DNA of 64,000 bases from Schmidtea polychroa (Eukaryota), in assembly GCA_044892525.1 (NCBI GenBank), contig CM097885.1:28584001-28648000 (forward strand), read 5' to 3'. Position numbers and translations under genes: made by a program. The notes under the pieces are model-generated. The model was not told the DNA's origin. It did not search any database and saw only the letters and a program-made list of their open reading frames with translations. Of the stretch, positions 327 to 52,185 are shown in pieces; the first letter of the stretch is position 1; each line of letters opens with the position of its first letter.

Positions 327-957
327 TCAAATTTGTTTTGAACTTTGTTTATAAACCATGGCACCTTTTGGGTTGAAAATATCTGTTTTTACCCGTATAT
401 CATCAGGACATTGTTGTGTGAAATCGAGAAATATATACCCATGAGGTACTTTCGTAGCATCTTGAAATGGATTGATAAGAAAATTACGGTTATTACGGTC
501 GTCCAAGAAAATCAATGACAGTTGCATCTCTAGGATTCTTGAAAATAACTAGATATTGTACATTTAAATTACGTGTTCGATGTGCCCCACCTTGATGAAA
601 TAGATTTTGTGTTATGAAAATAACTGTTACACCAACATGTTTGCTGATTGTTGTGAATAAATTATTAAAATCCTTTTATTTATTGGCTTCTTGATACAAA
701 TCATCGATAATGATGACATCATCTTTCTTCAAACGACTTGACCAGTTTTTATCAAAACCCTTTACTATTTTCATGTTTTTCAATTGACAGAAACTTGATT
801 GTGTCAATCCATGTTCTTCATCGGCGCCCCTATGCCAATAAATATTGTTGAATTTTGTTTTGAACAAATTAGATTTTAGTAATTTACAAACAAATAATGT
901 TTTTCCACTACCACTCGGACCAACGATTTGGTATACTGCATCATTTCGTAATTCCAT
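327..957 (-). pseudogene. Polinton DNA-packaging ATPase (A32/FtsK-HerA family), disrupted
   Basis: Walker A GPSGSGKT and Walker B IIIDD. After a stop at 676 the frame continues ..SKHVGVTVIFITQNLF..RTRNLNVQYLVIFKNPRD; after a frameshift it ends PHGYIFLDFTQQCPDDIRVKTDIF. Confidence 0.88.
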
Positions 958-1294
958 TTTTTAAATTTAAACTATATAATTATTGTTTATATTGATAATT
1001 TAAATGAACTCCTTTTAAAATAACTATATATAACAGAGTTTTTATAATTATTTCATTAAAATGCTTTCAAATATAAATTACAGGGCAAAAGCTGATGTAT
1101 CAAAAATGATATTTCCAATGAGGAAACCACAACAACTCATCAATAGAAGTAAAAAATATCCAATAATATATTTCAAAACTGGTAAATGTAGAATTATGGG
1201 GTGTAAGGAAATAATCAAAGCTAGTGAATATAATGTTTATGATTTAGAAATACAATCGATAACCGTAACTTCCGATATAGGTTTTTCTTGTAAT

Positions 1295-2398
1295 TGTTGG
1301 ATGACAGAGGAAGAAGAATCGAAGAGTTTGAATTAACACATTACTATAGAACGGGCAGCAACAAGTTCAGAATCAATATATACGTGGAGCCCAGATAACT
1401 CAAGCCGGACAAATCAAAACAATTATCATTACAATTTGACTACTGACTTATGTACATTAGTGATTTATCGGACTATTATTTTATGACAATTATTATTTAC
1501 GGTGTTTTATATTATTTTATCAATGTATCTTATTTATTTTATGGAGTTATATGTATTTTATGTTGATATTTCATATAAATAAAACATAGTATGGGGATTA
1601 ATTAAATAATTAATATCAGTATAATTACAAAATACATAATATTGAAAATAATAAGTGGACATTTTAAATAATTGAAAAACATATGTTGAAAATAATGAAA
1701 ATAATAAGTGGACATTTTAAATTGAAAAACATATGTTGAAAATAATGAAAATAATAAGTGGACATTTTAAATAATTGAAAAACATATGTTAGGAGCATGA
1801 GTGGTTCTCGAGTCGTGGGAACATAATTTTAACAATAATTAACAGCAATAATAATAATTTTAGCAATAATAATAATTTTAATTTTTATCACAAATTTTTA
1901 GCAATCATAAATAATTTTAATATTTTAACAATAATCAATTTTGTAGCAGTTATTTAACACTTTAAGAAGCATGTATATAAAAATATATTAATTTCTTAAT
2001 TATATTTCTTAAGTACACTTGAAAATTATAACAATTTAATTTCATATACGAAAAAAGTATAAATAGCGAGTCAAAATTCATTTTTTTCGCCCCAAAATTT
2101 TAACCGCGTTAACATACTAAAAAGGTTAATCCTTATTAGTGCTAAAACTCGAACAGACAAACAGAAACGTTCAAAAGCCTACACGCAACACAGCAAGAGA
2201 ATACATAACATTCACACAATACACACAAGCATATTCGATTGGATATTTAAAGGATTTTTGGATTTTTGTAGCAAAAAAATTCATATTGGTAAATTTTTAT
2301 TTATAATAAAAGTTTTATAACTCACTTCGTCTTTTGATATATTTGTACATATATAAGAACCAGTAAGTTGAGTGTTCCCGAATATCGAGACCTCAACA
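1295..2398 (+). repeat. 5' LTR (1104 bp)
   Basis: Direct repeat of 9136-10270. Contains three ~50-bp tandem units (~1644-1790), TATAAATA at ~2058 and AATAAA at ~2305. Confidence 0.95.
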
Positions 2399-2400
2399 TT

Positions 2401-2418
2401 TGGTGCCGCGAACCGGGA
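2401..2418 (+). promoter_or_regulatory. Primer-binding site (tRNA-Phe- or His-like)
   Basis: TGGTGCCGCGAACCGGGA, 2 nt after the LTR end, complementary to a tRNA 3' CCA end. Confidence 0.8.
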
Positions 2419-2638
2419 CTTTAAAATTAATTATTGTTATTCACAATTTGGGGGATAGGAATTGAGATCAGAGGGTATAGTATTTTATATTGGGAAAATA
2501 TATTTATAAAAATAATATCATTGATCAATTTTTTAAATAAATAAATTCAGTTTTGAAAATTATTAAATAATTCAAAAAGATAAAATAGATAATCAACCCG
2601 AAATAGTTTATAATCTCAGAAATAGAATAGTCTATAGG

Positions 2639-3634
2639 ATGAATAATAATAATAATAATTACATAAAAATTTTACCAGTAGAACCATATAGAGGAGAGCC
2701 CGAAAAGTTCGACGATTTTTTCACTGAGATCGCTCAGTATGCAGAAGCTTGTGGTTGGACACCTGATGAATTAAAAATGAGAATCCCATTATACTTAAAA
2801 GGCTATGCGTTACAGGCATACAATAACTTAGAATGTAAAGGGAATAATTTTGATCAACTCGTAAGATATCTGAGAGCAGAAATAGTAATCGATAGCGATT
2901 TACAAAAGATAAATGTTCAAAAATTTAGAAACAGATATCAAGGTACTAGAGAATCAGTTGGTGAATATGTATATACGATTACGGAGTTAGCGAAAAAGGC
3001 ATTTGGTGCAGGCGAGCACACAGCAAAATTAATTGAGGATCAGTTTTGGAATGGTATACAAAAATATTTATATAAAGCATTAATTATGGTAGAATATGGT
3101 AATTTAAATGAATTAGTTCATAAAGCTAAACGCATAGAAGCAATACAACGAGATAGATTTAGCTCACATGTAGATGCAATGGAAATTCAAAAACCCATCG
3201 AGGTAAAATCTGAGTTGGGTAAGTCAGATGACAACATTCCCTGGGAGGAGATGAAGCAACTATATTTAAACTTTGTAAAAAATAGACGAAGGGTAAGCCC
3301 GAGTCCGGATAGAAGTCAATCGCCTGAAAACAGGAGGAGGTTTGATAATGTGAGAAACAGAAACTTTGAGAATAGAAACAATAGAAACACTTTTGATAGA
3401 GATAATCGATACGAATACAATAGAAATAATTATACGAGAGATAATCGAGTCGATTTTAGTAGAAATAATTTGAGAAATAATAAATATGATAGAAGTAATA
3501 GATATGATAATAGAGATAATACAAATGATTTGAGACGTAGACAGACAAGTCCATATAGACAGAATTCATATAGAGAAAGGCGAGGAAGCCCTTATAATAA
3601 TGATGGTAGAGATAAAGTAAATTTTAATGGATAG
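2639..3634 (+). CDS. gag: Gag (capsid-like domain plus R/N/S-rich tail)
   Basis: Retrotransposon gag motifs (PYRGEPEKFDDFF, YLKGYALQAY, RYQGTRESVGEYV, QFWNGI). Ends at TAG with the frame staying open downstream. Confidence 0.9.
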   Translation: MNNNNNNYIKILPVEPYRGEPEKFDDFFTEIAQYAEACGWTPDELKMRIPLYLKGYALQAYNNLECKGNNFDQLVRYLRAEIVIDSDLQKINVQKFRNRYQGTRESVGEYVYTITELAKKAFGAGEHTAKLIEDQFWNGIQKYLYKALIMVEYGNLNELVHKAKRIEAIQRDRFSSHVDAMEIQKPIEVKSELGKSDDNIPWEEMKQLYLNFVKNRRRVSPSPDRSQSPENRRRFDNVRNRNFENRNNRNTFDRDNRYEYNRNNYTRDNRVDFSRNNLRNNKYDRSNRYDNRDNTNDLRRRQTSPYRQNSYRERRGSPYNNDGRDKVNFNG

Positions 3635-6600
3635 ATCAAATGTTATAATTGCCAAAAATATGGTCACTTAGCTAAAGTATGTAATAATGCGCGAAGCGAA
3701 TCGCCTAATAGAGTGAGATTTAAAAATGAGCCTGAGATAAAACAAATTAATAGTGCTGAGTTGATATCAGCTAATGAGGAAATAAACAGTTTGAGAGAGG
3801 AATTAAAAGAATTTAAAACTCAATATGGGAGACTTATTGAGAGAAAGTTAGAAATGTCATTAAATGAGTTTCAGTGTTTTACTAATGATGTAGATATAGA
3901 TAATGATGAGTTTCGCGAAGCAAGAGAAGCGGATGAGAAATTTCTTGCAGAAGCAAATAGATGTAAAGAATTAAAAGAGGAATTGAAAGAGACATTAGAG
4001 AAATGGCCTTATGATGACAATAAGACATTGCGTATAATAAATAGAGTTCAAGTCGAAGGAATTGACTTAGAATATTTGAGAAATTTGATACCACTAATGG
4101 TAAAGAGGCAAAATATGACAAGAGTATTTGAATTAGAAATAGAATTGAAAGAAATGATAAAGTGTTATGGTGAATTTGTGAGAAAAAATCAGAAATTACA
4201 TGAGTCATTGAATATAACTATTGAGGCAAAGGACCTTTCGAGAATACTTATGCGTAGTACAGGGGTACATGTTTGCACAAAAGTGAATAAAGTGAAACAG
4301 ATGGCCAGAGCAAATTGGCCCGAGAAATTGGGAGATAATGATAAAGTGAAACTGTATTTTAACGGCGTAGAAATGATGAATAATGAATATATAATTGACT
4401 ATGGAGTAAACGTCATTGATAACAATATTATTTCTGCAGTAATAGAAAGGCAAGAAAGTAAAGAAATTGATACACCAACTCCATCAGTAGAATTGAGTAT
4501 AAACGACGAAAATGACTATGATAAATTATTTAGATTGTGGGATGCTTCTTCAGGAGGGGCAATGAGGTCACCAACAGCTAGCGAGGAAATCTTTAAACCT
4601 ATTGATACTAAATATGATAATTTACATGAGACAATAGAAAAAATTGCGAAACAAGCAAATATGCAGGATGCAGAGACAATGAGACGAGGTAGAGGAAGGC
4701 CTCGAAAATCGGAAATAGCCGAAAAGTCAGATGACAGAAAGGCAGCAGAGCGTCTAAGAAATATTGCAAATAATATGAGACAGGAAGCCCCAAAAAATCA
4801 GGATAATGACAAAGATATAAAGATGATAACGGAGTTAGCTAAAGCAATGAATAGGAGACGATTTCCGGAAGCAAAACCATCAGCGTTAATAGAAAATATA
4901 GTTAAAAAGATTAAATTAATGGAAAAAGAGATTAGAGAATTGAGTGCAGAGGAAGCAAATGAAGAGACAGTGTTAAAGATATTATTTACAACAGGAGTTA
5001 ATCGAGATAAAGTAATTACGGCAATGGCATATTTAATAACAAGATATAAGAAACTTTTGCGATTGAATCCAAAGAATCAAATAGAAAATATCGCTAAAAT
5101 GATATATAATAAATTAAAGATAGATGCTATGCCATGGATAAAATTAAAGGGAGGATGGAAAATACTGTATGATGAGAGTCTAATCGAAAGTGCTCAGGAA
5201 AGCGTAGAAGATAATATTAATGTAGAAATAGATGATACGGAGGATTTTAGCGGTAAACAATTAATAGTAGTACCACAAAGATTAAGACAAATTCTTCTGT
5301 TACAATATCACGATGGTGCTTTAGGAGGTCATTTATCAAGTAGGAAAACAGCAAGCAGATTGATGCAAAAATATTATTGGGACGATTTGAAAAAGGATGT
5401 CAAGAGATGGTGTAATGCATGCACAATATGCGCAACTAGAAAAAATACAGGAACAAAAACTAAAGCACCTTTACATCCAATCCCAGCTACAACATCACCA
5501 ATGGAACTGTGCGCAATGGATTTTTTGTGTAAACTACCCACAACAATTAATGGGAATAAGCACATACTAGTTTTTAGCGATTATTTTACAAAATGGGCAG
5601 AGGCATTTCCTACAAAAGATGAAACAGCAGAAACAGTAGCTAAATTACTTGTGGAAAAAATAATCTTTAAAATCGGTACACCGAGAAAATTATTAACAGA
5701 TAAAGGGAAAAATTTCACAAGTGAAACTATAAAAAGAGTAGCTAACATATTTAACATGCATAAAATCAACACAACATCATACCACCCTCAGACCGATGGT
5801 TTAGTAGAGAGATTCAATGGGACATTGCTAAGTAGATTAGCTGTGTTTGTGGGAAAAAACCAAAATGATTGGGATGAATACGTTAATCAATGCACATACA
5901 TCCATAATATCACACCAAATGAGACAACGGGATATTCACCATATTTTCTAATGTTCTTAAGAGAGCCTGCGACACCGATTGATACAATTTTTGAGCCTCG
6001 AGTATCACAATATTTAGATGCGCCAGATTATGTAACATTAATGCAAGAGAGATTACAAGAGGTATATAAGGTTGCAAATTTAAAAGTTAAATTCAGACAA
6101 GAACAATATAAGGCAGATTACGATAAAAATAGCAAACCTCATAATTTTAAAGTGGGAGATAAGGTTAGACTTATGTCTCCACAAGTAGGAAAAGGCAAAA
6201 CAACTAAATTAGCAAGACCATTTAAAGGACCATACGAAGTAGTAAAAGTAGTACATGAAAACTTGCATTTACAAAAACATAAAAATGAGGATCCGATAAT
6301 AGTACATGTTAATAGATGCAAACTAGCAGAAACAGAGTTAATAGAAAAACCACCTCACAAATATGGATTACGATCACAAAAAGCACTGGTGATGGCAGCG
6401 ATCTTTTTAACAATTATAGGGCTATGTAAATCAACTGAAGTAGAAAATGAGAGCATACACTCAGTAAAATACATGGAGGAAGATATTTTAATCAACATTT
6501 CACCGTATAAAATTAAAGTATATAACTTGAATAAATCACCTATAAGGGACTTATATCTAGAAACTGGGGATGATATACCCAAGCTTATGAAAAAAATTGA

Positions 6601-7213
6601 GAATAGATCAACTAATGAATTTGAAAGGGGAGACAATGTTGAATTCATAAATCTACAGCCTAACATTAATTACACACTTTGTGCACAATGGAATACCTTA
6701 GTTGACACATCACAAGTAAGGTGCAAAAGAATAAGTACCACTATTACAAACATATATAAGCCCATAGATAATAACATGCCAACAACCACCATAACAATAA
6801 CTACCACAAATTCGGCATCCACCCAACAGTCATTACAAACGATAACAAACACAGATAGAGAAACGACATTTAAAGTAACTAGACAAATATACAAAAAATT
6901 AATAATAAAAAATCTAAGACAGTTTGATAGGAAACTGGTAAAATTACCTACGGGAAAACCCATAATCATAAATAACTGGGATGAACTAAGAGCATTTCAA
7001 GTAAAACCTGCTAAACCACGATGGCCTTTCTATGTAATTTCATCAAGCATTTTAGCATTGAGTATTTTAGCTATTATCACCAGTGTTCAAGTGTATAAAA
7101 AATACAAATGGAAAAGGCAGCGGTATCGGCACCGACTGGTCAAAAATGTACCAGGGCATTTTCATTTGGATAAGTATAGGCCAGGACAATACACAATGTC
7201 CTCATTGGTTTAA
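3635..7213 (+). CDS. In-frame continuation of gag: CCHC knuckle, coiled coil, ubiquitin-like, AT-hook, integrase, hydrophobic segment, FN3-like, Thr-rich stalk, TM
   Basis: CYNCQKYGHLAKVC right after the TAG; KLYFNG..I.DYGV (Ubl, ~4208-4445); RRGRGRPRK (~4682); HHCC zinc finger, D..D-35-E core and GPY motif (~5260-6240); NLQPNINYTLCA; WPFYVISSSILALSILAIITSVQVY followed by a basic tail. Confidence 0.85.
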   Translation: MKCYNCQKYGHLAKVCNNARSESPNRVRFKNEPEIKQINSAELISANEEINSLREELKEFKTQYGRLIERKLEMSLNEFQCFTNDVDIDNDEFREAREADEKFLAEANRCKELKEELKETLEKWPYDDNKTLRIINRVQVEGIDLEYLRNLIPLMVKRQNMTRVFELEIELKEMIKCYGEFVRKNQKLHESLNITIEAKDLSRILMRSTGVHVCTKVNKVKQMARANWPEKLGDNDKVKLYFNGVEMMNNEYIIDYGVNVIDNNIISAVIERQESKEIDTPTPSVELSINDENDYDKLFRLWDASSGGAMRSPTASEEIFKPIDTKYDNLHETIEKIAKQANMQDAETMRRGRGRPRKSEIAEKSDDRKAAERLRNIANNMRQEAPKNQDNDKDIKMITELAKAMNRRRFPEAKPSALIENIVKKIKLMEKEIRELSAEEANEETVLKILFTTGVNRDKVITAMAYLITRYKKLLRLNPKNQIENIAKMIYNKLKIDAMPWIKLKGGWKILYDESLIESAQESVEDNINVEIDDTEDFSGKQLIVVPQRLRQILLLQYHDGALGGHLSSRKTASRLMQKYYWDDLKKDVKRWCNACTICATRKNTGTKTKAPLHPIPATTSPMELCAMDFLCKLPTTINGNKHILVFSDYFTKWAEAFPTKDETAETVAKLLVEKIIFKIGTPRKLLTDKGKNFTSETIKRVANIFNMHKINTTSYHPQTDGLVERFNGTLLSRLAVFVGKNQNDWDEYVNQCTYIHNITPNETTGYSPYFLMFLREPATPIDTIFEPRVSQYLDAPDYVTLMQERLQEVYKVANLKVKFRQEQYKADYDKNSKPHNFKVGDKVRLMSPQVGKGKTTKLARPFKGPYEVVKVVHENLHLQKHKNEDPIIVHVNRCKLAETELIEKPPHKYGLRSQKALVMAAIFLTIIGLCKSTEVENESIHSVKYMEEDILINISPYKIKVYNLNKSPIRDLYLETGDDIPKLMKKIENRSTNEFERGDNVEFINLQPNINYTLCAQWNTLVDTSQVRCKRISTTITNIYKPIDNNMPTTTITITTTNSASTQQSLQTITNTDRETTFKVTRQIYKKLIIKNLRQFDRKLVKLPTGKPIIINNWDELRAFQVKPAKPRWPFYVISSSILALSILAIITSVQVYKKYKWKRQRYRHRLVKNVPGHFHLDKYRPGQYTMSSLV

Positions 7214-7358
7214 AAATAATATAGATAATTTCAATTCCTATTGGTCAATGATAATATTTAAACTCACATATATTTATATTTTTATTTATATTGAAGCGTA
7301 TAAGGTAAAGCCTCAAATGCGCTGTAAATATGTATGTTTATATTGTTTTTTTAGAAAA

Positions 7359-9239
7359 ATGCAATCCAACAATACCAGAGTCAATCCCAAACCATTCAAT
7401 CCCATACAACGTCCAGTCCAACAATACAGCTGCTCCATTCAAAAACTATACCACAGTTTCTACAAAAATTTGCAAAATAAAATCACCTCAGACGGCTCAC
7501 CAATCACCATCAGAAGTTTCCCTAACCAGGTCTGCATACCCAATGAAATGAAGTGCGAAATCGAAGAAAGAGAAATGCACTTAGTTAAATTTAATGAAGC
7601 CCGAAGGATAAAGCTGAGAGATATAATAGGCACCTATGATATGTTCAAAAATGCAGATATCGCAGCAAATGAAGGAAGAAAAGTCCCACATAGAATACTA
7701 TTCCATATGACCAGAACGGAGGTCTCAATTTGCCAACAACGAATCCCTATTATAACAACAAGCAACTGCACGGTGGTGATCAAGACGATGAAGACAAATC
7801 GAAGCGTGCCAAACGATTTCAACAATTTGGTCATCCAAATGAACAATTTACCCTGTGTGATGGCTATCGAAATTCTATATGTCCCAACCATACCCAACCC
7901 TTTCAGAGAATTAGAGATGATACAGTCGGAAATCGTGATACATCAGGATTTCATCTCGAAACGGATGTCATTCACACATCAACAGTTGTCAATCCCCGAA
8001 CGACAAAGGGCAATCATGTTCGTCGATGTCAAAGAAGTATGCGACATCAATAACAATCTCAGACCAGTAGAGATATGCATCAGAAATTTTAGAGGAGAAA
8101 TCGTATACAATAAAAAGGTGACTCCACGCACCAAAATCCAACATTATTACCCGGAGAAGACAAGAGCAGACAGAGATTCGATAAGAGGAAACGAAGACGA
8201 ATACCAAGCGCTGATCGACATACAGAAGCTGCTACTCGGAAAAATCATTGTGGGATACGAAATAATAAAGAAACTCAAGACGCTGACATTAGATCTGTAC
8301 AATGTCATTGGAGTCAGAGAGTTAGCTGAAGATGTGTTCATGTGTTCATTCGTCAAAAATGTAGCACCACACAGAATCAAACTATCGAATCTCGCATACA
8401 AGGTAATCGCAACACACCCAAAATGGAAGAAAGACAAAGCAATCAACAACATCCTCAAAAAACCCGAACCGTTCTCAGCAGAAGATACAACACTAATCGC
8501 AAAAGTCATTTACCTCTTGGTCGAAAAGCAATGGGAAGAAGTCATAAGGTGGGACATGACAGCATTCCAAAAGGAAAATAATGGCCATCAACTCAGTCCA
8601 ATAGAAGAAAACAGCGATGAGCCAGAAGAATTTGAGGAAGATATATATATCGAACCTTCACAAAGAGAATTGAAATTCAATAAAGATGGGAGCAGACGTA
8701 CCTTTGAAGATGAACTAATGGACAGCGATGATGACATCATATTCGTCAAAGAGGACAAAAAACCACAAGCAATCACAATAAAGGAAGAACCTCAAACATC
8801 AAGAAGTTACAACTATGCTGACCCACAATGTGATTTAGACTCGGATGAAGAATATTTCTCACCTGGCGAAGCAATGCAGATAGATGACGAACTAGGACCA
8901 GAGCCAAATGTCGAGTTGGAGGAGCCAATGTTCATCATCAAAGAGGGAAGATCCACTATCTCGGAAAAAGAAATACATCAACACTTCGGCAGACGAATTA
9001 TTGATGGTGACGTGTTAAAATTGGCATTGAAGAAAGGATTCCAAAGAGCAACAATGTATATAAACGGTTGTGAAATCGAATTGGTCCTTAGCGATAAAGG
9101 TAATGAGGACATTACTTTATCGGCCCTAGGAGGAGTGTTGGATGACAGAGGAAGAAGAATCGAAGAGTTTGAATTAACACATTACTATAGAACGGGCAGC
9201 AACAAGTTCAGAATCAATATATACGTGGAGCCCAGATAA
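7359..9239 (+). CDS. ORF3 (~626 aa from ATG 7359) with degenerate DEDDh (ISG20/REXO4-like) exonuclease fold
   Basis: FVDVKEV..EICIRNFRGEIVYNKKVTP..IQKLLLGKIIVGY..KLSNLA..SAEDTTLIAKVIY parallels the REXO4/ISG20 motif order. Start codon chosen by the adjacent splice acceptor; the open frame begins at 7083. Confidence 0.7.
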   Translation: MQSNNTRVNPKPFNPIQRPVQQYSCSIQKLYHSFYKNLQNKITSDGSPITIRSFPNQVCIPNEMKCEIEEREMHLVKFNEARRIKLRDIIGTYDMFKNADIAANEGRKVPHRILFHMTRTEVSICQQRIPIITTSNCTVVIKTMKTNRSVPNDFNNLVIQMNNLPCVMAIEILYVPTIPNPFRELEMIQSEIVIHQDFISKRMSFTHQQLSIPERQRAIMFVDVKEVCDINNNLRPVEICIRNFRGEIVYNKKVTPRTKIQHYYPEKTRADRDSIRGNEDEYQALIDIQKLLLGKIIVGYEIIKKLKTLTLDLYNVIGVRELAEDVFMCSFVKNVAPHRIKLSNLAYKVIATHPKWKKDKAINNILKKPEPFSAEDTTLIAKVIYLLVEKQWEEVIRWDMTAFQKENNGHQLSPIEENSDEPEEFEEDIYIEPSQRELKFNKDGSRRTFEDELMDSDDDIIFVKEDKKPQAITIKEEPQTSRSYNYADPQCDLDSDEEYFSPGEAMQIDDELGPEPNVELEEPMFIIKEGRSTISEKEIHQHFGRRIIDGDVLKLALKKGFQRATMYINGCEIELVLSDKGNEDITLSALGGVLDDRGRRIEEFELTHYYRTGSNKFRINIYVEPR

Positions 9240-10270
9240 CTCAAGCCGGACAAATCAAAACAATTATCATTACAATTTGACTACTGACTTATGTACATTA
9301 GTGATTTATCGGACTATTATTTTATGACAATTATTATTTACGGTGTTTTATATTATTTTATCAATGTATCTTATTTATTTTATGGAGTTATATGTATTTT
9401 ATGTTGATATTTCATATAAATAAAACATAGTATGGGGATTAATTAAATAATTAATATCAGTATAATTACAAAATACATAATATTGAAAATAATAAGTGGA
9501 CATTTTAAATAATTGAAAAACATATGTTGAAAATAATGAAAATAATAAGTGGACATTTTAAATTGAAAAACATATGTTGAAAATAATGAAAATAATAAGT
9601 GGACATTTTAAATAATTGAAAAACATATGTTAGGAGCATGAGTGGTTCTCGAGTCGTGGGAACATAATTTTAACAATAATTAACAGCAATAATATTAATT
9701 TTAGCAATAATAATAATTTTAATAATAATTAATAGCAATAATAATAATTTTAATTTTTATCACAAATTTTTAGCAATCATAAATAATTTTAATATTTTAA
9801 CAATAATCAATTTTGTAGCAGTTATTTAACACTTTAAGAAGCATGTATATAAAAATATATTAATTTCTTAATTATATTTCTTAAGTACACTTGAAAATTA
9901 TAACAATTTAATTTCATATACGAAAAAAGTATAAATAGCGAGTCAAAATTCATTTTTTTCGCCCCAAAATTTTAACCGCGTTAACATACTAAAAAGGTTA
10001 ATCCTTATTAGTGCTAAAACTCGAACAGACAAACAGAAACGTTCAAAAGCCTACACGCAACACAGCAAGAGAATACATAACATTCACACAATACACACAA
10101 GCATATTCGATTGGATATTTAAAGGATTTTTGGATTTTTGTAGCAAAAAAATTCATATTGGTAAATTTTTATTTATAATAAAAGTTTTATAACTCACTTC
10201 GTCTTTTGATATATTTGTACATATATAAGAACCAGTAAGTTGAGTGTTCCCGAATATCGAGACCTCAACA
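9136..10270 (+). repeat. 3' LTR (1135 bp)
   Basis: Copy of 1295-2398; by eye it differs only by an extra 31-bp AAT-rich unit (~9721-9751) and one substitution nearby. Confidence 0.95.
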
Positions 10271-10625
10271 TAATTTAAATAAATTGGCTAAATTAATACC
10301 ATGCTTTTACGAACCAGAATTATTTCCAGCTTTGAGATATATAAAATATAACCCTATGTGTGTAAATATATTCGCTAGCGGTAAGATAGTAATTCTTGGA
10401 ATAAAAAATATTGATTACAAGTGTATAGTTGATAATATCATATCTGAAATTAAATCAATAATTGAAGGAAATGAATTTTTAGATTTTTTTTTATTATCAC
10501 TTAATTAATTATTTATCATTGCAAATTCAATGCAATTGAAATGCATGATTCTGATTGGACGAAATCTAATTGGCTGATGATTATTTATAACAAAAAGTTT
10601 TCGGTTTAGTTGTCATTTTTAAACC

Positions 10626-11286: not shown

Positions 11287-11706
11287 ATGACAAAGAAAAT
11301 TTCAAGCAGTGAAAAGCCAAAAGTTGTTCCAGAACTTGTACAACCTGTTCAAATGTTCCACAACTATAAAATGTATTTTTTAAAAGAAGAAATCAATATG
11401 AAATTGGCGTCACCGATCAAGCTAATTCCAACTAAATTTCAATTCTTATCCGGCACGCTTTCAATGATAGATGTTAAATCTATTGATGAGGTTTTCAAAC
11501 GGTTGAATACGAATCTATCTTGTAATCAACATGCCTGGTTCAACAACAGATATGCAAGATTTTATGATTCCTTTGATGAAATCGCTTTCAAAGAAAACGA
11601 AAATTGGTATATAACAATTGCAATCCAAGGATATAAAGTTGATAATAATGATGTATATTCTCCTATTTGGAAAATTATGTCTGCTAGACTTTCAGAACTA
11701 TTTTAA
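11287..11706 (+). CDS. Hypothetical 139-aa Polinton protein
   Basis: Intact ORF with upstream TATAAAA (~11246). A diverged second copy of its promoter and 5' half lies at ~51826-52097. Confidence 0.65.
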   Translation: MTKKISSSEKPKVVPELVQPVQMFHNYKMYFLKEEINMKLASPIKLIPTKFQFLSGTLSMIDVKSIDEVFKRLNTNLSCNQHAWFNNRYARFYDSFDEIAFKENENWYITIAIQGYKVDNNDVYSPIWKIMSARLSELF

Positions 11707-12169: not shown

Positions 12170-12698
12170 TTAATTTTTATTCATATATCTACAGAAAATA
12201 TACATTATAACAACTCCAGTTGTAAGTTTTATATAGTTTTTCATTTTTCTTTTGATTTCATCAGTTTCTTTAAAATTGCAGGCCAGTTTATTTAATACAC
12301 CCCATCCGCCATTGGCTTCTATCCATGGGGTAAACTTGGACTTGATTATCTAGAAATGAATATTATTAAAATATAAATTATAAAAGAAATCTTACTTCTA
12401 AAGACCACTGATAATAATGTTCTGAGTCATGTTGACCTTTTACAATGATTATCTTCATGTAGGTGAATCCTACAATTATCCTTGTCCATTTCATGTCTTC
12501 ATCGAAAAGACACTGAAATATTCTATTGAAGTAATACTTCTTGGTTTCCAGGGATTCCGTCTCCATCATCTGCTGATAATCGATATGTTCACCTTCAATG
12601 ATTTGTTCAGTTCGATTGATCAGGAAATTGAGGCTGTCGACTATATTCGCGGTGACAATTCCGTTTAGAACATTTTCCATAAAATTTGGTTGCGACAT
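12170..12698 (-). CDS. Bcl-2 family-like protein, two exons (12698-12396, 12349-12170), ~160 aa
   Basis: BH1-like LFDEDMKWTRIIVGFTY; GTAAG..TTCTAG intron 12395-12350; BH2-like PWIEANGGW; C-terminal hydrophobic tail YIKLTTGVVIMYIFCRY. Confidence 0.8.
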
Positions 12699-12908: not shown

Positions 12909-12911
<3 letters not shown>

Positions 12912-12970
<59 letters not shown>

Positions 12971-12977
12971 CATAATC

Positions 12978-13035
<58 letters not shown>
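12912..13035. repeat. (AAT)n microsatellite
   Basis: Directly visible. Confidence 0.95.
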
Positions 13036-13037
<2 letters not shown>

Positions 13038-13329
13038 TTAGAAAATATGTGTTTTATTACATTGTTTAATAATATCATTGTACCCTTGCGAGTTGTTGAG
13101 CGTGACCAGTACCCTTGTGAGCAGTACCCATAAGGGGACAGAATATTTTGTCGGATAGACTCGGAGTATATAGATTAATAATAATATATCAATAGCTATC
13201 GATGAGAACACTAACTTGTTGCATGTGTGGACACTAATAATATTTTTTATACCTTGTGTGTGTGACAGAATATCTTGTCTGATAGACTATATTGTGTGTA
13301 ATAATAATTTTGTCAACTTTTTCGTCAAA

Positions 13330-13619
13330 ATAAGTTTTTAAAATACCGCAACGTAATATATTTAATAATTAAAATATAATAAATTTTAAAATACCGCAAC
13401 GTAATATAAATTAAAAAAAAACCGCAGCGTAATATATTTTAAAAAAAGTACCCCCCCTCCCCGGGGGGGTGGGGGATATGACGCCATATGTCTTTGTGAC
13501 GTCATCGATGACGTCATATGTCTTTGTTCCCGGGTCCACACAATACCCTACTATAATTGAAATTTGTATTGCCGCAACCCCTCTTCGGCTGGAGGGGGTC
13601 ATTGTTGCAGAGGACTACT
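13330..13619. repeat. Probable Polinton terminal-inverted-repeat region
   Basis: Three ACCGCA(A/G)CGTAATATA repeats, C/G tracts, a 20-bp palindrome and terminal ACTACT. The partner TIR is not in the window. Confidence 0.6.
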
Positions 13620-42646: not shown

Positions 42647-43870
42647 GGAATGCCTACCGAAATCATGCCAAGACATGCTCATACTGAACATCAGACGAAA
42701 TGATGGAAGAGGTTTAAAGAAGCCGAAGAATGGATCAGGGATATAGAAGAATGGTTGCTGACAAATGGACAGCGATTGACAAGTACTTTCGATGTGTTAT
42801 TAGTGGCAGAAGCAAAGACATTGTGGGGAAACGTCAGAGAAACAGAAAAAACAGATGTAAAAGCCAAAGCGTGGTTCTTAAATACGTTCACAATTACAAA
42901 ATCAATAACTGACAAAATCGGAGAATTGGCAGCTATGGAACAGGAAGATGATGAAAGGTTTGCAGCTTTTGAGATACGGCTAAGAAAAGCTTTAGCTGAA
43001 GTTGTAAATTCAGGACGATCAGAAGAAGATATTGTTCAAGACCTCATCGCATATAAAGCACGCGATGCGAGACTGAGGGAGATACTATTGACGAAACCAG
43101 AAACAAAAATTGAAGAAACGAGATCATTGGCGAAAATTTTTGAAAGTAACAAAAATGGAAACCATAAAACAGAATTTATTAAAGCAATCGGTCAAAGAAC
43201 ATACGCTAGCGTGACTGAGGGAGGGGAGATGAGAATTCAAAAGAATATCCAAGATCCCATGTCTACATCACCACAAAGAAGACTATCAGAAGATCCATTT
43301 AGTCACCACAAATCAAGAAGAGACGAACATCCTATACGCGGACCAATACAATACGAAGGAAATAATCATGGTCGTCGAGAACAATCTCCAAGAGAACAAT
43401 TCTTGAGAAATACGAGAATCCCGAATAGCTCAGAAAGGAAGCCGCCAACAATATCCATGAAGAATATTGCAAGGAGGCTGTACAACGAAAGTAGGGGACT
43501 ACCACAAGCATCGGTCTCAAAATTAACGGTAGGTGATTGTTTTTGCTGTGGCGAAAAGGGACATAGAAGGTTTGAGTGTCCACTGGGAAATAAATGCCTG
43601 ATATGTGGCAAGGAAGGACACGGGTTCCGAGATTGTTTTACGTTACGGAAAAATGTTCCACACCAATATCAAAGAATAGCGTGCATAGAAGAAGAAGATT
43701 CAAAATCTGAAAGAAGAGATTACGCCGAGAACAGCCAGGATTTCAGAATGGATCACAGCAATATGGAAGATAGATACAATGTCCCTGAGAAATATACTAT
43801 ATTGAGAGAAGACGGGAAAAAAATCAGCGACTCCATGGGTTTCATTTCGTCAGTGGAGTCAAGACAATAA
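42647..43870 (+). pseudogene. gag: Gypsy gag with two CCHC knuckles (5' end disrupted)
   Basis: CFCCGEKGHRRFEC and CLICGKEGHGFRDC. Confidence 0.85.
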
Positions 43871-43914
43871 ATTGAGAAATAAGAAATGAACGACGAAGAG
43901 ACGAGGCAGAAGAA

Positions 43915-46900
43915 ATGTACCAGACGAAAGATGGAAGAAATTGGAGTAAAATAATGTTGAATAATTCCGAAACAGAGATGTTATGGGATTCTGGAGCATC
44001 AGTAACAGTCATGAGCAAGAATTTGTGGGAGAAAATAGGCAAACCAGAACTTAAACGTAGTCTGATATTATTGTGCGGAGTTTTTTCAACTGGAGGTGAA
44101 GAAGCAATGGGGTACATGACTATACCGGCCACATTGAATCAGAAGACCAAAATAATCACAGTAGTAGTGGTAAAAGAGATCAAACCCGAATTCATAGGGG
44201 GCATTGATACAATGAAAGAGTTTGGAGTAAAGTTAATGAAAATCAATAATATAGAAACGTCTGTTAGACGCAACAACGTCGAATTCATTTTCAATCTCCA
44301 TAATTAATAAATTAACCAAATAAAATTACTAAATTTATTTTATTCAAAAAACTGCCCTTTTTTGTAATATTCAAACAATCTGTTCGAGGCTTTTTTTTAT
44401 TTTAATTTTGATGCTGATTTCAATGATGGTTTAATTTATTTTAATATTTAATATATTTTAATTTATTTTTATATTTTAAACTTACTTTAATTTATTAATT
44501 TAAATATTTATATAAAAATTTATGTAATCTGATAAATACAATTTAAAGGTTTATTAGCAATATTCAGTTTTAGCTTACACGTTAATTCTACCCTTTCATC
44601 GTCATTGATAAACAAATTTTACACTGATGAAGAAAGAATAAATAAAGCACTAGTGGCGATGGCAGGTGAGAATAGTAAAGATATTGAAGGAATGATCAGG
44701 GAATACGGCGGAATTTTTATGGCATCGAAATTCGATCTGGGATTTACAAACTTAGTTCGACATGAGATGCGGATAACAGGAGGCCCAATAATGCAACATC
44801 CTCGACGTCAACCAATGCACATGGAGAAAAGGATTGAAGAACTGATAAAAGAGTTAATGAAAGCAAATGTTATTCGGTGTTGCAAGAGTCCTTGGAATGC
44901 CCCGTTAGTGATAGAAGGGAAGAAAGATAGATCTATCAGGATGTGTGTAGATTATCGTGGATTAAATTCAATAACAGAAAAAGAGTCATTTCCTATGCCT
45001 AACACCAAATTCTTACTAGACAGTCTCGCGAATGCAAAAATATTTTCGTCAATCGATTTAGGTTAGGCGTATTATCAAGTGGAGTTGGCTCCAGAAATTC
45101 AAGAAATGACTGCATTCAGTCCAAGAGAAGGACAATTTTGCTTCAATAGACTACCGTTTGGCTTAGCAACAGCTCCTACGACATTCCAGAGAATGATGCA
45201 CACAGTGCTAGAAGGAATGCTATTCAAGGGAGTAGTAGTTTATATAGATGATATCTTGGTATATGGTAAAAGTCAAAAAGACCACGATGAGCTATTATGG
45301 GAAATATTCAGAAGAATTCAAGTTGCAGGACTGAAGATAAATCCAGCAAAATGCAAATTCAATAAAACAGAATTGTGTTTCCTTGGTCACACAATTAACG
45401 AGAAGGGTATCCAGACAAACAGGAAGAAAGTGGAAGAAATCGAGAAAGTAGAAGTGCCAAAATGTTCAAAACAATTGAGATCGTTTCTCGGATTAAGGAA
45501 CTACTATAGAGGATTCATCAAAGAGTATGCCAAAATCGCCGAAACATTATACGCTGCAACATCTGGATGCGATAAAGATATAAATTGGACTAAAGAATGC
45601 AACGAGAGCTTCCAAACTCTGAAGAGACGGTTGTGCGAAGCACCTATCCTCGATTTTCCAAGAGAAGATAGGACTTTTATCTTAGACACAGCCGTTGGTG
45701 CAGTTTTGAGTCAAATTACAGAAGATGGAGAAGAATCTGTCATAGCTTATGACTCGAGACATATGTCATCACATGAAAAGGGATACTGTGTAACCAGGAA
45801 AGAACTGCTCGCCGTACATGAATACGTTATGCATTTTAGAGAATATCTGAACGTGAAAAAATTCATAATTCGCACCAACCACAAGGCATTGGTTTTCATG
45901 AACACTACAGAAACGCCAATCAGTCCACAGTTCCAAACATGGTTAGCTAACCTGTCGGAATATGATTTTGAACTAAAATATCGGAAAGGCGAAGAACACT
46001 CGAATGCAGATGGACAATCAAGATTAAAAAGTATGATTTGCACCCAGTGTCAAACAAGACATGAAGAAGCTAAGCAAGGAAAATCAAAGATTAGATATAT
46101 ATATATATATATATATATATACTATCCAAAGAACAGAAGCTATGGAAAAAGTATGGGAACAACAACAAAAGGACATTCGGTTTCGAGAGCTGCGAGAGAT
46201 ATTGGAAAATGGATGTACACGGGAGAAAAAGAATTGCTTCCCCTTTAACGTAAAAAATACACAAATTGATGGAGGATTAATAACAGTAGAAAAGAACAAA
46301 ATTATCTTAATGTTAGTCCCAGAAACATTTGCAGGCCTGTTAACAACAACGCTACATGAAGAACTATGTCACATTGGAGTTGAGAAATTTTTTCATTATA
46401 TGGAAAAGATATTTTATTGGCCGAAAATGCAAGAAACAATCCAACTCTGTTTACGATGTTGCGAGATCTGCGCTAAGAGAAAGATCGATCAGACAAGAGC
46501 CAAGGAAACATTTATTCCTAGATATAGCTCTGAATTCCTAGAACAGATTGTTATAGACGTGGCTTACATGGAAATAAACGCCATAAAAAATATATGGTAG
46601 TAATGGTGGAACGTTTTAACAAACTGATTTCTTTAACTGCAATCACAAAGCAAGACGAAGGGACCATTTTCAAAACAATACTTAATAGTTGGATCTATCG
46701 ATTTGGAAAACCGAAGAGTATTTTAACAGATAGAGGCCGAAATTTCAAAGGGAATTTCCTAAGACAGAAGCTACAGAAACTTGGAATCAAACAAGAATTC
46801 AGCTTACCTTACCAGCACCAATCAAATGGTTTAGCCGAAAGAGCCATACGAACGATAAGAGATCTTATTACAGCAACATTGGCAGGCGGATGTGAAGAGA

Positions 46901-47316
46901 GAAACTGGCACGAACTTCTACCCAGAATAGAGTTCACTATAAATAACAGTCGACAAAGTGCTACAGGTTTATCACCATTTGAGATAATTTATGGACGGAG
47001 TGTTAACCTACACTCTAACCTGAAACAAGCCGATATATCAAGAAGCGAAAGAATCGAAGACGCGAGATTTAACTCGAGTAAAGCCGCAGACATTGTGAGA
47101 GTTATGGATAAGACAAAGTGGGGCACTCGTGTTTTCGAGGTGGGGGAGGAGGTACTCGTACGTAAAGAGCCGCAGAACAGGCACAAGGATGGTATGCAAT
47201 ACGATGGCCCATATAAAATCGCCAGATTTCTATCACCTCATCGAGTCGAACTACATTCACAAGAAGGAACAAAAGAAAGAAGAATCGAGTGGCTGAAGAA
47301 GTGTAAAAAGTCTTAA
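43915..47316 (+). pseudogene. pol: Gypsy pol (PR-RT-RH-IN) with stops, frameshifts and an AT-rich insert
   Basis: LWDSGAS protease; SPWNAP, RMCVDYRGLN and YIDD RT; RKELLAV RNase H; integrase LTDRG..SNGLAER and GPY. Insert at ~44255-44605 and a (TA)n expansion at ~46096-46120. Confidence 0.93.
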
Positions 47317-51825: not shown

Positions 51826-52093
51826 CAACATTAATGCAATTTAAACTTTAATATGATTGGTTGTTCCATTTATTTTGAAGGTATAAAACTCTACCATTTT
51901 ATTTTAATCATAATTCACGATGGTCAAGAAAAGCACTGAAAAACCGAAAGATGAACTTGTTCAGCCTGCTCAAATGTTCCACAACTACAAAATGTATTTG
52001 TTAAAAGAACAAATCAATATGAAATTGGTTGCACCGGTCAAGATAATTCCAACTAAATTTCAATTCTTATCCGACACGCTTTCAATGGTAGAT

Positions 52094-52097
<4 letters not shown>
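51826..52097 (+). pseudogene. Fragment of the Polinton 139-aa gene with its promoter, truncated by (AAT)n
   Basis: ELVQPAQMFHNYKMYLLKEQINMKLVAPVKIIPTKFQFLSDTLSMVDV matches the 11287 ORF; upstream sequence also matches. Confidence 0.85.

Positions 52098-52185
<88 letters not shown>

Follow-up and report, generated by a model that had tools for sequence, protein, structure and literature searches.

A reduced TBP gene of Maverick elements in Schmidtea polychroa and its putative role at late promoters

Mavericks, Polintons and adintoviruses are characterized (PMC8502044, PMC6431247) by terminal inverted repeats (TIRs), a 6-bp target-site duplication (TSD), protein-primed PolB (pPolB), integrase, ATPase, and protease-like and capsid-type genes; Bcl-2 homologues have also been reported in Mavericks and adintoviruses. 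A viral TBP-like factor, vTBP, is known from beta- and gammaherpesviruses (ORF24 of KSHV) and serves late virion genes with a TATA variant, TATTWAA, and host RNA polymerase II (Pol II) (PMC12529657). According to PMC7221094, the TBPs of large DNA viruses have a diverged regulator surface on the N-lobe; the two C-lobe glutamates of TBP make contact with TFIIB, and TFIIA, Mot1, Brf1 and TAF1 dock on the N-lobe/H2 patch. The locus described here lies in an element with TIRs, a 6-bp TSD, pPolB, integrase and ATPase, as well as putative capsid-type and protease-like genes, and encodes a TBP whose N-lobe regulator surface is likewise diverged. A viral TBP-like gene and a non-canonical TATA word before virion genes are both present in these Mavericks, a resemblance to herpesviruses by analogy only. 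A search of the literature as text, as opposed to picture-only figures and supplements, turned up neither a description of this TBP family nor a survey of it in animal Mavericks nor a promoter motif belonging to it.

The window, i.e., the whole stretch of DNA analysed, comprises 64,000 nucleotides of Schmidtea polychroa contig CM097885.1 (positions 28,584,001 to 28,648,000) and contains the following features:

327..957, minus strand: Maverick packaging ATPase of the A32 type, disrupted by a frameshift as well as in-frame stops (open 212-aa frames in other copies)
1061..1294, plus strand: 5' piece of the mini-TBP gene, reduced N-lobe, equal to residues 1–78 of natural copies
1291..1294, plus strand: target-site duplication TAAT, left copy
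1295..10270, plus strand: LTR retrotransposon, recent, internally deleted; LTRs at 1295–2398 (5') and 9136–10270 (3'), primer-binding-site-like sequence after 2398
2639..7213, plus strand: gag-like ORF of the LTR element (2639–3634, ending in TAG), followed in frame by an ORF that holds Bcl-2-like and integrase domains
10271..10274, plus strand: target-site duplication TAAT, right copy
10275..10508, plus strand: 3' part of the mini-TBP gene, encoding the C-lobe and its YEPELF stirrup; Pfam PF00352 2e-08, 34.4 bits (cut-off 22.9), and matches to TBP in PDB
11287..11706, plus strand: 139-aa Maverick ORF, no function assigned; CCAAT-type box (11220) and TATAAAA (11246) upstream
12170..12698, minus strand: Maverick Bcl-2-like gene, two frames split by a stop; Pfam PF00452 5e-04, below the curated cut-off
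12910..13552, strand not applicable: right TIR of the Maverick, with an approximate start, followed by the 6-bp duplication ATAATT (13553–13558)

The earlier note had taken the ORFs at 1061–1336 and 10284–10508 for halves of one TBP-family gene with a TAAT duplication at the break, and comparison with a natural uninterrupted copy confirms this: the left piece is identical to residues 1–77 at 76 of 77 positions, and the right piece agrees with residues 79–148 over its first 70 residues (70/70). The two-piece structure stands with corrected bounds, namely, the first piece ends at 1294, as positions 1295–1336 are read from the LTR, and the second starts at 10275, not 10284. The two LTRs differ by one mismatch and one 31-nt indel, and a protease or RT was looked for in this copy of the LTR element and not found. 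The insertion junction in mini-TBP is unique in the genome, and all 39 of the 39 other scored copies of the LTR element part from the window's copy after ~5244. A Bcl-2-like domain in the polyprotein is shared with the Burro giant gypsy elements of planarians (PMC6431247), from which the window's copy differs in its 9-kb length and in having neither protease nor RT. The TBP copy of the window is in itself nothing unusual, sitting in a dead Maverick/Polinton struck by a retrotransposon.

Excision of the LTR element is not the only way to recover the gene, contrary to what had been supposed, as uninterrupted natural copies are abundant in the genome. The search for them showed that the flanks abut without insertion in 29/29 other genomic loci, with the reading frame open through the insertion site in 24 of these, and the scored genome matches (150/150) are mostly open frames of ~160 aa. 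The dN/dS ratio is ~0.2 (0.046/0.207 for L142 vs L150; 0.319/1.476 for L011 vs L150). Mini-TBP belongs to the fixed gene set of a Maverick lineage and evolves under purifying selection. No intron was found in the genome copies examined, as would be expected of a recent processed copy of host TBP; identity to host TBP genes is, however, ~25–30% over 100–140 residues vs 40–59% to the family. In a quick tree, whose group labels (archaeal, eukaryotic, other) are our own reading of the sequences and which included neither TRF2 nor a large-DNA-virus TBP of known origin, a single branch (SH-aLRT 99) divides 62 family rows from 47 of cellular type, which places mini-TBP outside the host TBP genes and within a widespread Maverick-linked family. 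A recent processed copy or a decaying passenger is contradicted by the separate branch, the low identity and the dN/dS value; either origin is hardly conceivable.

The surroundings of the gene bear out the proposal that it is element-encoded, with TIRs, 6-bp TSDs, pPolB, integrase, ATPase and capsid-type ORFs found around TBP. The left end of the Maverick lies at contig position 28576881, and TIRs are present, with the 6-bp TSD at both ends in five of the six copies inspected, the window's included. Among the element ORFs, Pfam recognized protein-primed PolB (PF03175, 2.9e-29) and ATPase (PF04665, 2e-07), and the integrase domain rve (PF00665, 1e-06) was detected below the cut-off. Frames of 407 aa and 355 aa and a protease-like frame, without Pfam match, are conserved across elements at the expected places; from motifs and gene order, they are tentatively taken to be capsid-type and protease genes. 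TBP adjoins ATPase in 17/18 further genome loci, chosen by ATPase or TBP, and a neighbour matching a Maverick gene is present in 37/71 metagenome loci (20/25 among loci of at least 3 kb). The two genes lie head to head (ATPase ATG at 957, minus strand; TBP ATG at 1061, plus strand), the divergent arrangement described earlier being one of orientation. Presumed-RNA contigs of three runs span the ATPase–TBP stretch wholly (X1) or partly (X8, X9), with strand and level not readable. Scans of viral contigs gave no match to the alignments of TBP, capsid and ATPase or to a single distant capsid, and a phage collection gave none to ATPase.

Profile search of the whole protein, using the natural copy L011 (154 aa), matched the TBP family (PF00352, 5e-15, 55.6 bits vs the cut-off of 22.9). 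The predicted model of the natural copy (pLDDT 97.4; Foldseek E 1.5e-9) has the two-lobed saddle fold over both lobes, with a VIA Z of 12.7 for residues 1–145 and a best non-TBP Z of 6.6; the protein is TBP core throughout its 154 aa. Both TBP repeats had been reported from the sequence; the N-terminal one is visible by alignment and predicted fold, and Pfam recognizes the C-terminal repeat only. The linker over H2 has a median of 21 residues in the family vs 33–34 in most cellular TBPs; the modelled copy has an 18-residue linker and a four-residue helix where N-lobe H2 would be, and some deeper family members retain 28–32 linker residues.

Compared with host TBP, the first Phe is replaced by P23, Val by R44, Thr by M46, Asn by S66 and Leu by N109, and, according to the predicted model and alignment, substitutions on the DNA-facing N-lobe are family-wide. 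In 124 homologues, F95, F111, N109 and M46 are invariant (124/124), R44 is found in 123, E93 and P23 in 122 each and E91 in 117. Three of the four intercalating phenylalanines are kept, the first N-lobe Phe being Pro in 122/124, and the TFIIB-contact glutamates, E91 and E93, are retained. With one intercalating Phe and two helices gone, the protein may bend DNA weakly or not at all. A protein which retains the TFIIB-contact glutamates and has lost the remaining regulatory surface and one Phe might act as a decoy or inhibitor, soaking up host TFIIB or blocking host TATA boxes and so damping host transcription or defence, and the element also holds a Bcl-2-like host-control gene; we consider this unlikely, as a pure decoy leaves unexplained the invariant new DNA-face residues (N109, M46 and R44) and the co-occurring promoter word. 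Between the basal factor and the decoy offered by the earlier note, the former is the better supported, since the gene is accompanied by a TATA variant that is strand-specific.

This variant is TATAAAC, and the window contains the following candidate promoter words:

347..353, minus strand: TATAAAC upstream of a 164-aa ORF, within the 3' end of the ATPase
985..991, minus strand: TATAAAC ahead of the ATPase gene, candidate late promoter
1025..1031, plus strand: TATATAA, canonical-type TATA ahead of the TBP gene, candidate early promoter

On the sense strand, TATAAAC was found before 21/23 ATPase, 9/10 major capsid and 5/5 core genes (shuffled means 0.8, 0.1 and 0.1), and before 1/49 of the TBP genes themselves (shuffled mean 1.0). 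In a larger count, the word precedes 56 of 74 virion/packaging genes of elements with mini-TBP and 1/53 TBP genes; before the virion/packaging genes it stands as TATAAAC(A), most often 30–50 nt ahead of the start codon, and its antisense form precedes 1/74 of the same set; the last base is C in 57/69 TATAAAx. It is lacking from the other 18/74 and, in the first count, from penton (7/10) and integrase (8/9) genes, where start codons are uncertain. In elements without mini-TBP, TATAAAC was found before 0/18 virion/packaging genes; these controls come from eight contigs of ~5 lineages, several of them partial, where absence of TBP is not proven. The 15 control genes from TBP-less contigs are richer in G+C (AT content 0.58 vs 0.69), and Fisher values on the motif counts overstate independence because of the few control lineages and the differing base composition. 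All Maverick families sampled in the genome carry TBP, so it provides no negative control of its own. The motif and gene might simply be inherited together. Some TATAAAC sites fall within the coding sequence upstream, and there codon constraint may play a part. A second Maverick lineage (L166) has a full-length TBP and no TATAAAC.

The forkhead consensus RYAAAYA overlaps TATAAAC(A), and GTAAACA is a common forkhead word. A host factor, forkhead or host TBP, might read TATAAAC(A), mini-TBP doing another job: ATAAACA occurs within 50/57 sites, and, according to the title of PDB entry 1qn3, cellular TBP was crystallised on a box with C at position 7. Set against a forkhead reader, GTAAACA was found in none of 57 xTAAACA, and the 5' T is present in 57/67 xATAAAC; a host reader of either kind agrees poorly with the strand specificity and position bias of the motif and its absence from 18/18 genes of elements without mini-TBP. 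We regard a host reader as rather unlikely. A forkhead enhancer as the main sense of TATAAAC was rejected.

Mini-TBP, a reduced TBP encoded by Mavericks, probably serves working elements as a factor for viral late promoters. Host TBP would direct early expression of mini-TBP from an ordinary TATA/CCAAT promoter, and mini-TBP would then bind TATAAAC, which has C at position 7 and is used poorly by cellular TBP. Of the two lobes of TBP, the N-lobe is the one in contact with the 3' half of the TATA box. The retained stirrup would recruit host TFIIB and Pol II, and TFIIA, TAF1, BTAF1/Mot1 and Brf1 would be escaped, since the N-lobe docking helix is gone; this would provide the capsid, ATPase and core genes with an early-to-late switch. 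As a whole, a viral TBP made early and driving late genes on the model of herpesvirus vTBP, here by way of TFIIB and Pol II of the host, appears probable to the same degree. In the yeast HIS3 TATA, C at position 7 abolishes activity, and cellular TBP can bind it through a Hoogsteen pair (PMC4457894); no publication linking TATAAAC, Hoogsteen and TBP was found in the literature search. The elements have no recognisable TFIIB, since PF00382 gave only 21 matches in the genome vs ~3,000 TBP candidates.

Mini-TBP might instead need an element-encoded partner, e.g., the 122-aa or 139-aa ORF, which would cover the helix-less N-lobe in a small viral initiation complex. A homologue of the 139-aa ORF lies near the TBP gene in 15/71 metagenome loci, and herpesvirus vTBP needs five partners (PMC12529657); however, the remaining 56 loci, many of them short, showed no such neighbour, the monomer model is confident and no partner was identified, so a partner seems very unlikely.

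Extension of the late-promoter reading to a whole animal Maverick lineage with a one-protein orthogonal switch, in which the smallest TBP, stripped and tuned to TATAAAC, works with host TFIIB and Pol II, is held with less confidence, as only just probable. If true, 15-kb elements would have a true early/late viral programme, and mini-TBP would be a natural minimal TBP separating TFIIB recruitment from TFIIA/TAF/Mot1 control, as well as half of a natural altered-specificity TBP–promoter pair. This bears on whether animal Mavericks count as genuine viruses that run a regulated lytic programme and on how their capsid genes are switched on; TBP and the candidate late-promoter word are open to binding and reporter assays, and the word may serve as a marker for late genes.

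Compared with known systems, ORF24 is large, binds Pol II directly and depends on five viral partners, and its model does not accommodate TFIIB (PMC12529657), whereas the Maverick TBP is a bare core keeping the TFIIB contacts, with only weak structural matches to herpesvirus vTBP; the Pfam scan of element ORFs found no Pol II-binding N-terminal domain or five-partner families of the herpesvirus type. In most TBPs of large DNA viruses, which are also represented among structural matches in BFVD, the TFIIB glutamates are gone (conservation of ~40% at one site), and the virus supplies a TFIIB of its own (PMC7221094); in the Maverick mini-TBP, these glutamates are 94–98% conserved, no TFIIB was found in the elements, and the element genome is ~15 kb. 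With cellular and archaeal TBP (PF00352; PDB 1mp9, 7o4i and 5fur), the predicted mini-TBP shares the saddle fold (Z 12.5–12.7, rmsd 2.4–2.6 Å over 141–143 residues), the C-lobe Phe pair and the stirrup glutamates, and differs from cellular TBP in its length of 154 aa, the absence of N-lobe H1 and H2 and its encoding by a mobile element.

The reduced TBP-family gene (mini-TBP) of the window lies in a Maverick copy and is represented by two pieces, separated by a nested LTR element:

G000:C1:28576881 to window 13552: Maverick copy, with a 6-bp duplication and inverted ends
353-347, minus strand: TATAAAC
991-985, minus strand: TATAAAC
1061-1294, plus strand: 5' piece of mini-TBP
1291-1294 and 10271-10274: target-site duplication TAAT
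1295-10270: LTR element, with LTRs 1295-2398 and 9136-10270
10275-10508, plus strand: 3' piece of mini-TBP

The LTRs differ by one substitution and one 31-nt indel; therefore, the insertion is recent. The Pfam TBP profile matched the 3' piece above the cut-off (2e-08), while no match was found in the Pfam search with the 5' piece alone. When the 3' piece was searched against the S. polychroa genome (G000, 781 Mb), all 150 scored of 3,489 candidates were matches, with 95-100% identity for nearly all. In all 29 other loci fetched, the window flanks adjoin directly, and 24 of the 29 contain an uninterrupted frame, mostly of 154 aa; the exact empty-site sequence occurs 127 times in the genome, and the filled junction once. 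Accordingly, the two pieces are one gene, as the earlier note proposed, although its claim that the gene is recoverable only by excising the LTR element does not hold, since the uninterrupted copies it suggested searching for are abundant. The natural copy L011:1267-1728 was used for all later analyses. In another family member, L104:243-714 (plus strand), two frames are separated by a 40-nt GT-AG stretch. This is likely a spliceosomal intron, as would be expected of a gene expressed in the nucleus by Pol II.

Comparison of the neighbourhoods of seven copies showed an element of ~15 kb with inverted ends and, in five of six copies inspected, a 6-bp duplication at both flanks. Its copies contain genes of protein-primed PolB, rve-chromo integrase and A32-type ATPase; frames of 407, 355 and 120 aa and a protease-like frame are, by gene order and motifs, presumably those of the major capsid, penton, core and protease. 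By its ends, duplications and genes, the element is a Maverick/Polinton. The window copy is dead, because its ATPase gene carries stops and a frameshift, ~3.3 kb is deleted and the TBP gene is split. Mini-TBP adjoins the ATPase gene in 17 of 18 further G000 loci; in metagenome loci, a neighbour matches a gene of this Maverick in 37 of 71 (20 of the 25 of at least 3 kb), and the gene order around mini-TBP differs. Among Maverick subfamilies of G000 (L142-L159), TBP is ~57-60% identical and ATPase 83-97%, which suggests module swaps beside the ATPase. Related elements contain genes for a ubiquitin-conjugating-enzyme-like protein (L076:225-719) and a phospholipase-A2-like protein (L111:771-1211). 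Part of the 139-aa Maverick ORF, 146 nt long (window 11332-11477), is found again at 51953-52098, 40 kb downstream, with 91% identity.

In the nested LTR element, gag-like, Bcl-2-like and integrase parts are present, Pfam search found no protease or RT match, and the other scored copies part from the window's sequence at about 5244 (39/39); judging by this, it arose by deletion from a larger, Burro-like element (excerpt of PMC6431247). Bcl-2-like domains, with weak Pfam matches, occur in both the Maverick (12170-12698, minus strand) and the LTR element (within 3713-7210, plus strand). The third ORF of the latter (7083-9239, plus strand, about 700 aa) has no Pfam match; a stretch noticed by eye is, from its motif, presumably DEDD-exonuclease-like. 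A single TAG (3632-3634) between the gag-like ORF and an in-frame zinc-knuckle-like motif with a long ORF is either a readthrough site or a nonsense change. A second gypsy-type element (42755-47316, plus strand), frameshifted, contains gag, protease, RT, RNase H and integrase pieces.

The natural mini-TBP matches Pfam TBP at 4.7e-15, in the C-lobe only. Its close homologues number 97, mostly of 145-160 aa; with a threshold of 1e-10, 113 representatives were found. The AlphaFold2 model (alignment of 124 sequences, pLDDT 97.4) has TBPs as all its best Foldseek matches, and VIA-align gave Z 12.5-12.7 and rmsd 2.4-2.6 A over 141-143 residues, against 6.6 for the next fold, in agreement with the proposed TBP fold; viral TBPs are less similar in structure (the best of them with E 9e-8 and 18% identity). 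In the predicted N-lobe the strands are present, H1 is absent and H2 has only 4 residues; the median length of the H2-region stretch is 21 residues (range 17-32) versus 33-34 in most cellular TBPs, and deeper family members retain more of it. F95, F111, N109 and M46 are invariant (n=124), and E91 (117/124), E93 (122/124), P23 (122/124) and R44 (123/124) are nearly so. Aligned to host TBP, P23 stands for the first intercalating Phe, and R44, M46, S66 and N109 for Val, Thr, Asn and Leu. The protein is a TBP-family member, not a canonical TBP; the feature is real, and while the window locus is an ordinary dead copy, the finding is the family.

Host TBPs of G000 (L051-L060) include a canonical one with an intron and five or more divergent paralogues; compared with the Maverick protein, they are about 25-30% identical over 100-140 residues. 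A quick tree made with IQ-TREE (109 rows, with our group labels; large-virus TBPs of known origin not among them) has the 62 family rows together, split off by a branch with SH-aLRT 99, and all host genes with eukaryotic TBPs. That mini-TBP is a retrocopy is thus highly improbable, and the recent processed copy considered in the earlier note is not indicated. Between subfamilies, dN/dS is about 0.2. A Maverick-type contig (L166:11568-12122, minus strand) encodes a TBP of another kind, full-length at 185 aa and canonical in both lobes (Pfam 1.3e-36 in two stretches), possibly a second capture or the ancestral state.

The TATA variant TATAAAC was counted on the sense strand, 16-110 nt upstream of the start, for the 158 of 213 classified genes that were retained after removal of near-duplicates. 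It precedes genes of ATPase (21/23), major capsid (9/10), core (5/5), the 164-aa type (10/13), exonuclease-like protein (15/22), penton (3/10), protease (2/6) and integrase (1/9), with shuffled means of 1 or less, most sites beginning 30-50 nt before ATG. TBP genes have it in 1 of 49, their own upstream regions containing ordinary TATA (27/49) and CCAAT boxes (11/49). Among ten control Maverick-type contigs picked by ATPase alone, mini-TBP was found in two, a canonical-type TBP in one and none was seen in seven; L160, with mini-TBP, has 11 sense and 0 antisense TATAAAC, and the enrichment is absent on L166. In a re-count, TATAAAC stands at 56/74 virion/packaging genes of mini-TBP elements (antisense 1/74; GTAAACA 0) versus 0/15 in the contigs showing no TBP and 0/3 with canonical-type TBP. 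These controls are small in number and linked by descent, and some are incomplete or G+C-rich.

The N-lobe of TBP serves the 3' end of the box. Since the N-lobe and the 3' end of the word are both altered, the changes in protein and word lie on the same side. The Phe pairs of TBP insert at T1-A2 and at positions 7-8 (excerpt of PMC1935006). That a host factor, not mini-TBP, reads TATAAAC is unlikely. The yeast HIS3 TATA loses its activity when position 7 is C, although TBP is still able to bind it via a Hoogsteen pair (both from an excerpt of PMC4457894). According to the available part of PMC7221094, the C-lobe contacts TFIIB through a glutamate pair, while TFIIA, Mot1/BTAF1, Brf1 and TAF1 bind to a basic patch of the N-lobe, on H2. 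Mini-TBP is probably a factor that would be made early, read TATAAAC, recruit host TFIIB and Pol II and escape the N-lobe regulators. A decoy, the other role named in the earlier note beside a basal factor, is slightly less likely than the host-factor reading, and action in a partner-dependent complex has a low probability. The TFIIB-family search of G000 found no TFIIB in Mavericks; thirteen weak, clustered matches with open frames of 301-310 aa lie at G000:C1:23.8-24.2 Mb and C3:38.2-39.1 Mb.

Literature search, with subscription journals and Repbase outside its scope, found no description of the family or motif; in the accessible parts of Starrett et al. (PMC8502044), the legend of a figure lists 'TBP' for MELD viruses, and the text supplement has no TBP entry. 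Most viral TBPs lack the glutamates and supply their own TFIIB (excerpt of PMC7221094), whereas mini-TBP keeps them, and its elements have no recognisable TFIIB. Mini-TBP does not belong to the herpesvirus vTBP-TATT late system, but that system, as described in the available part of PMC12529657, may be a model for how it works.
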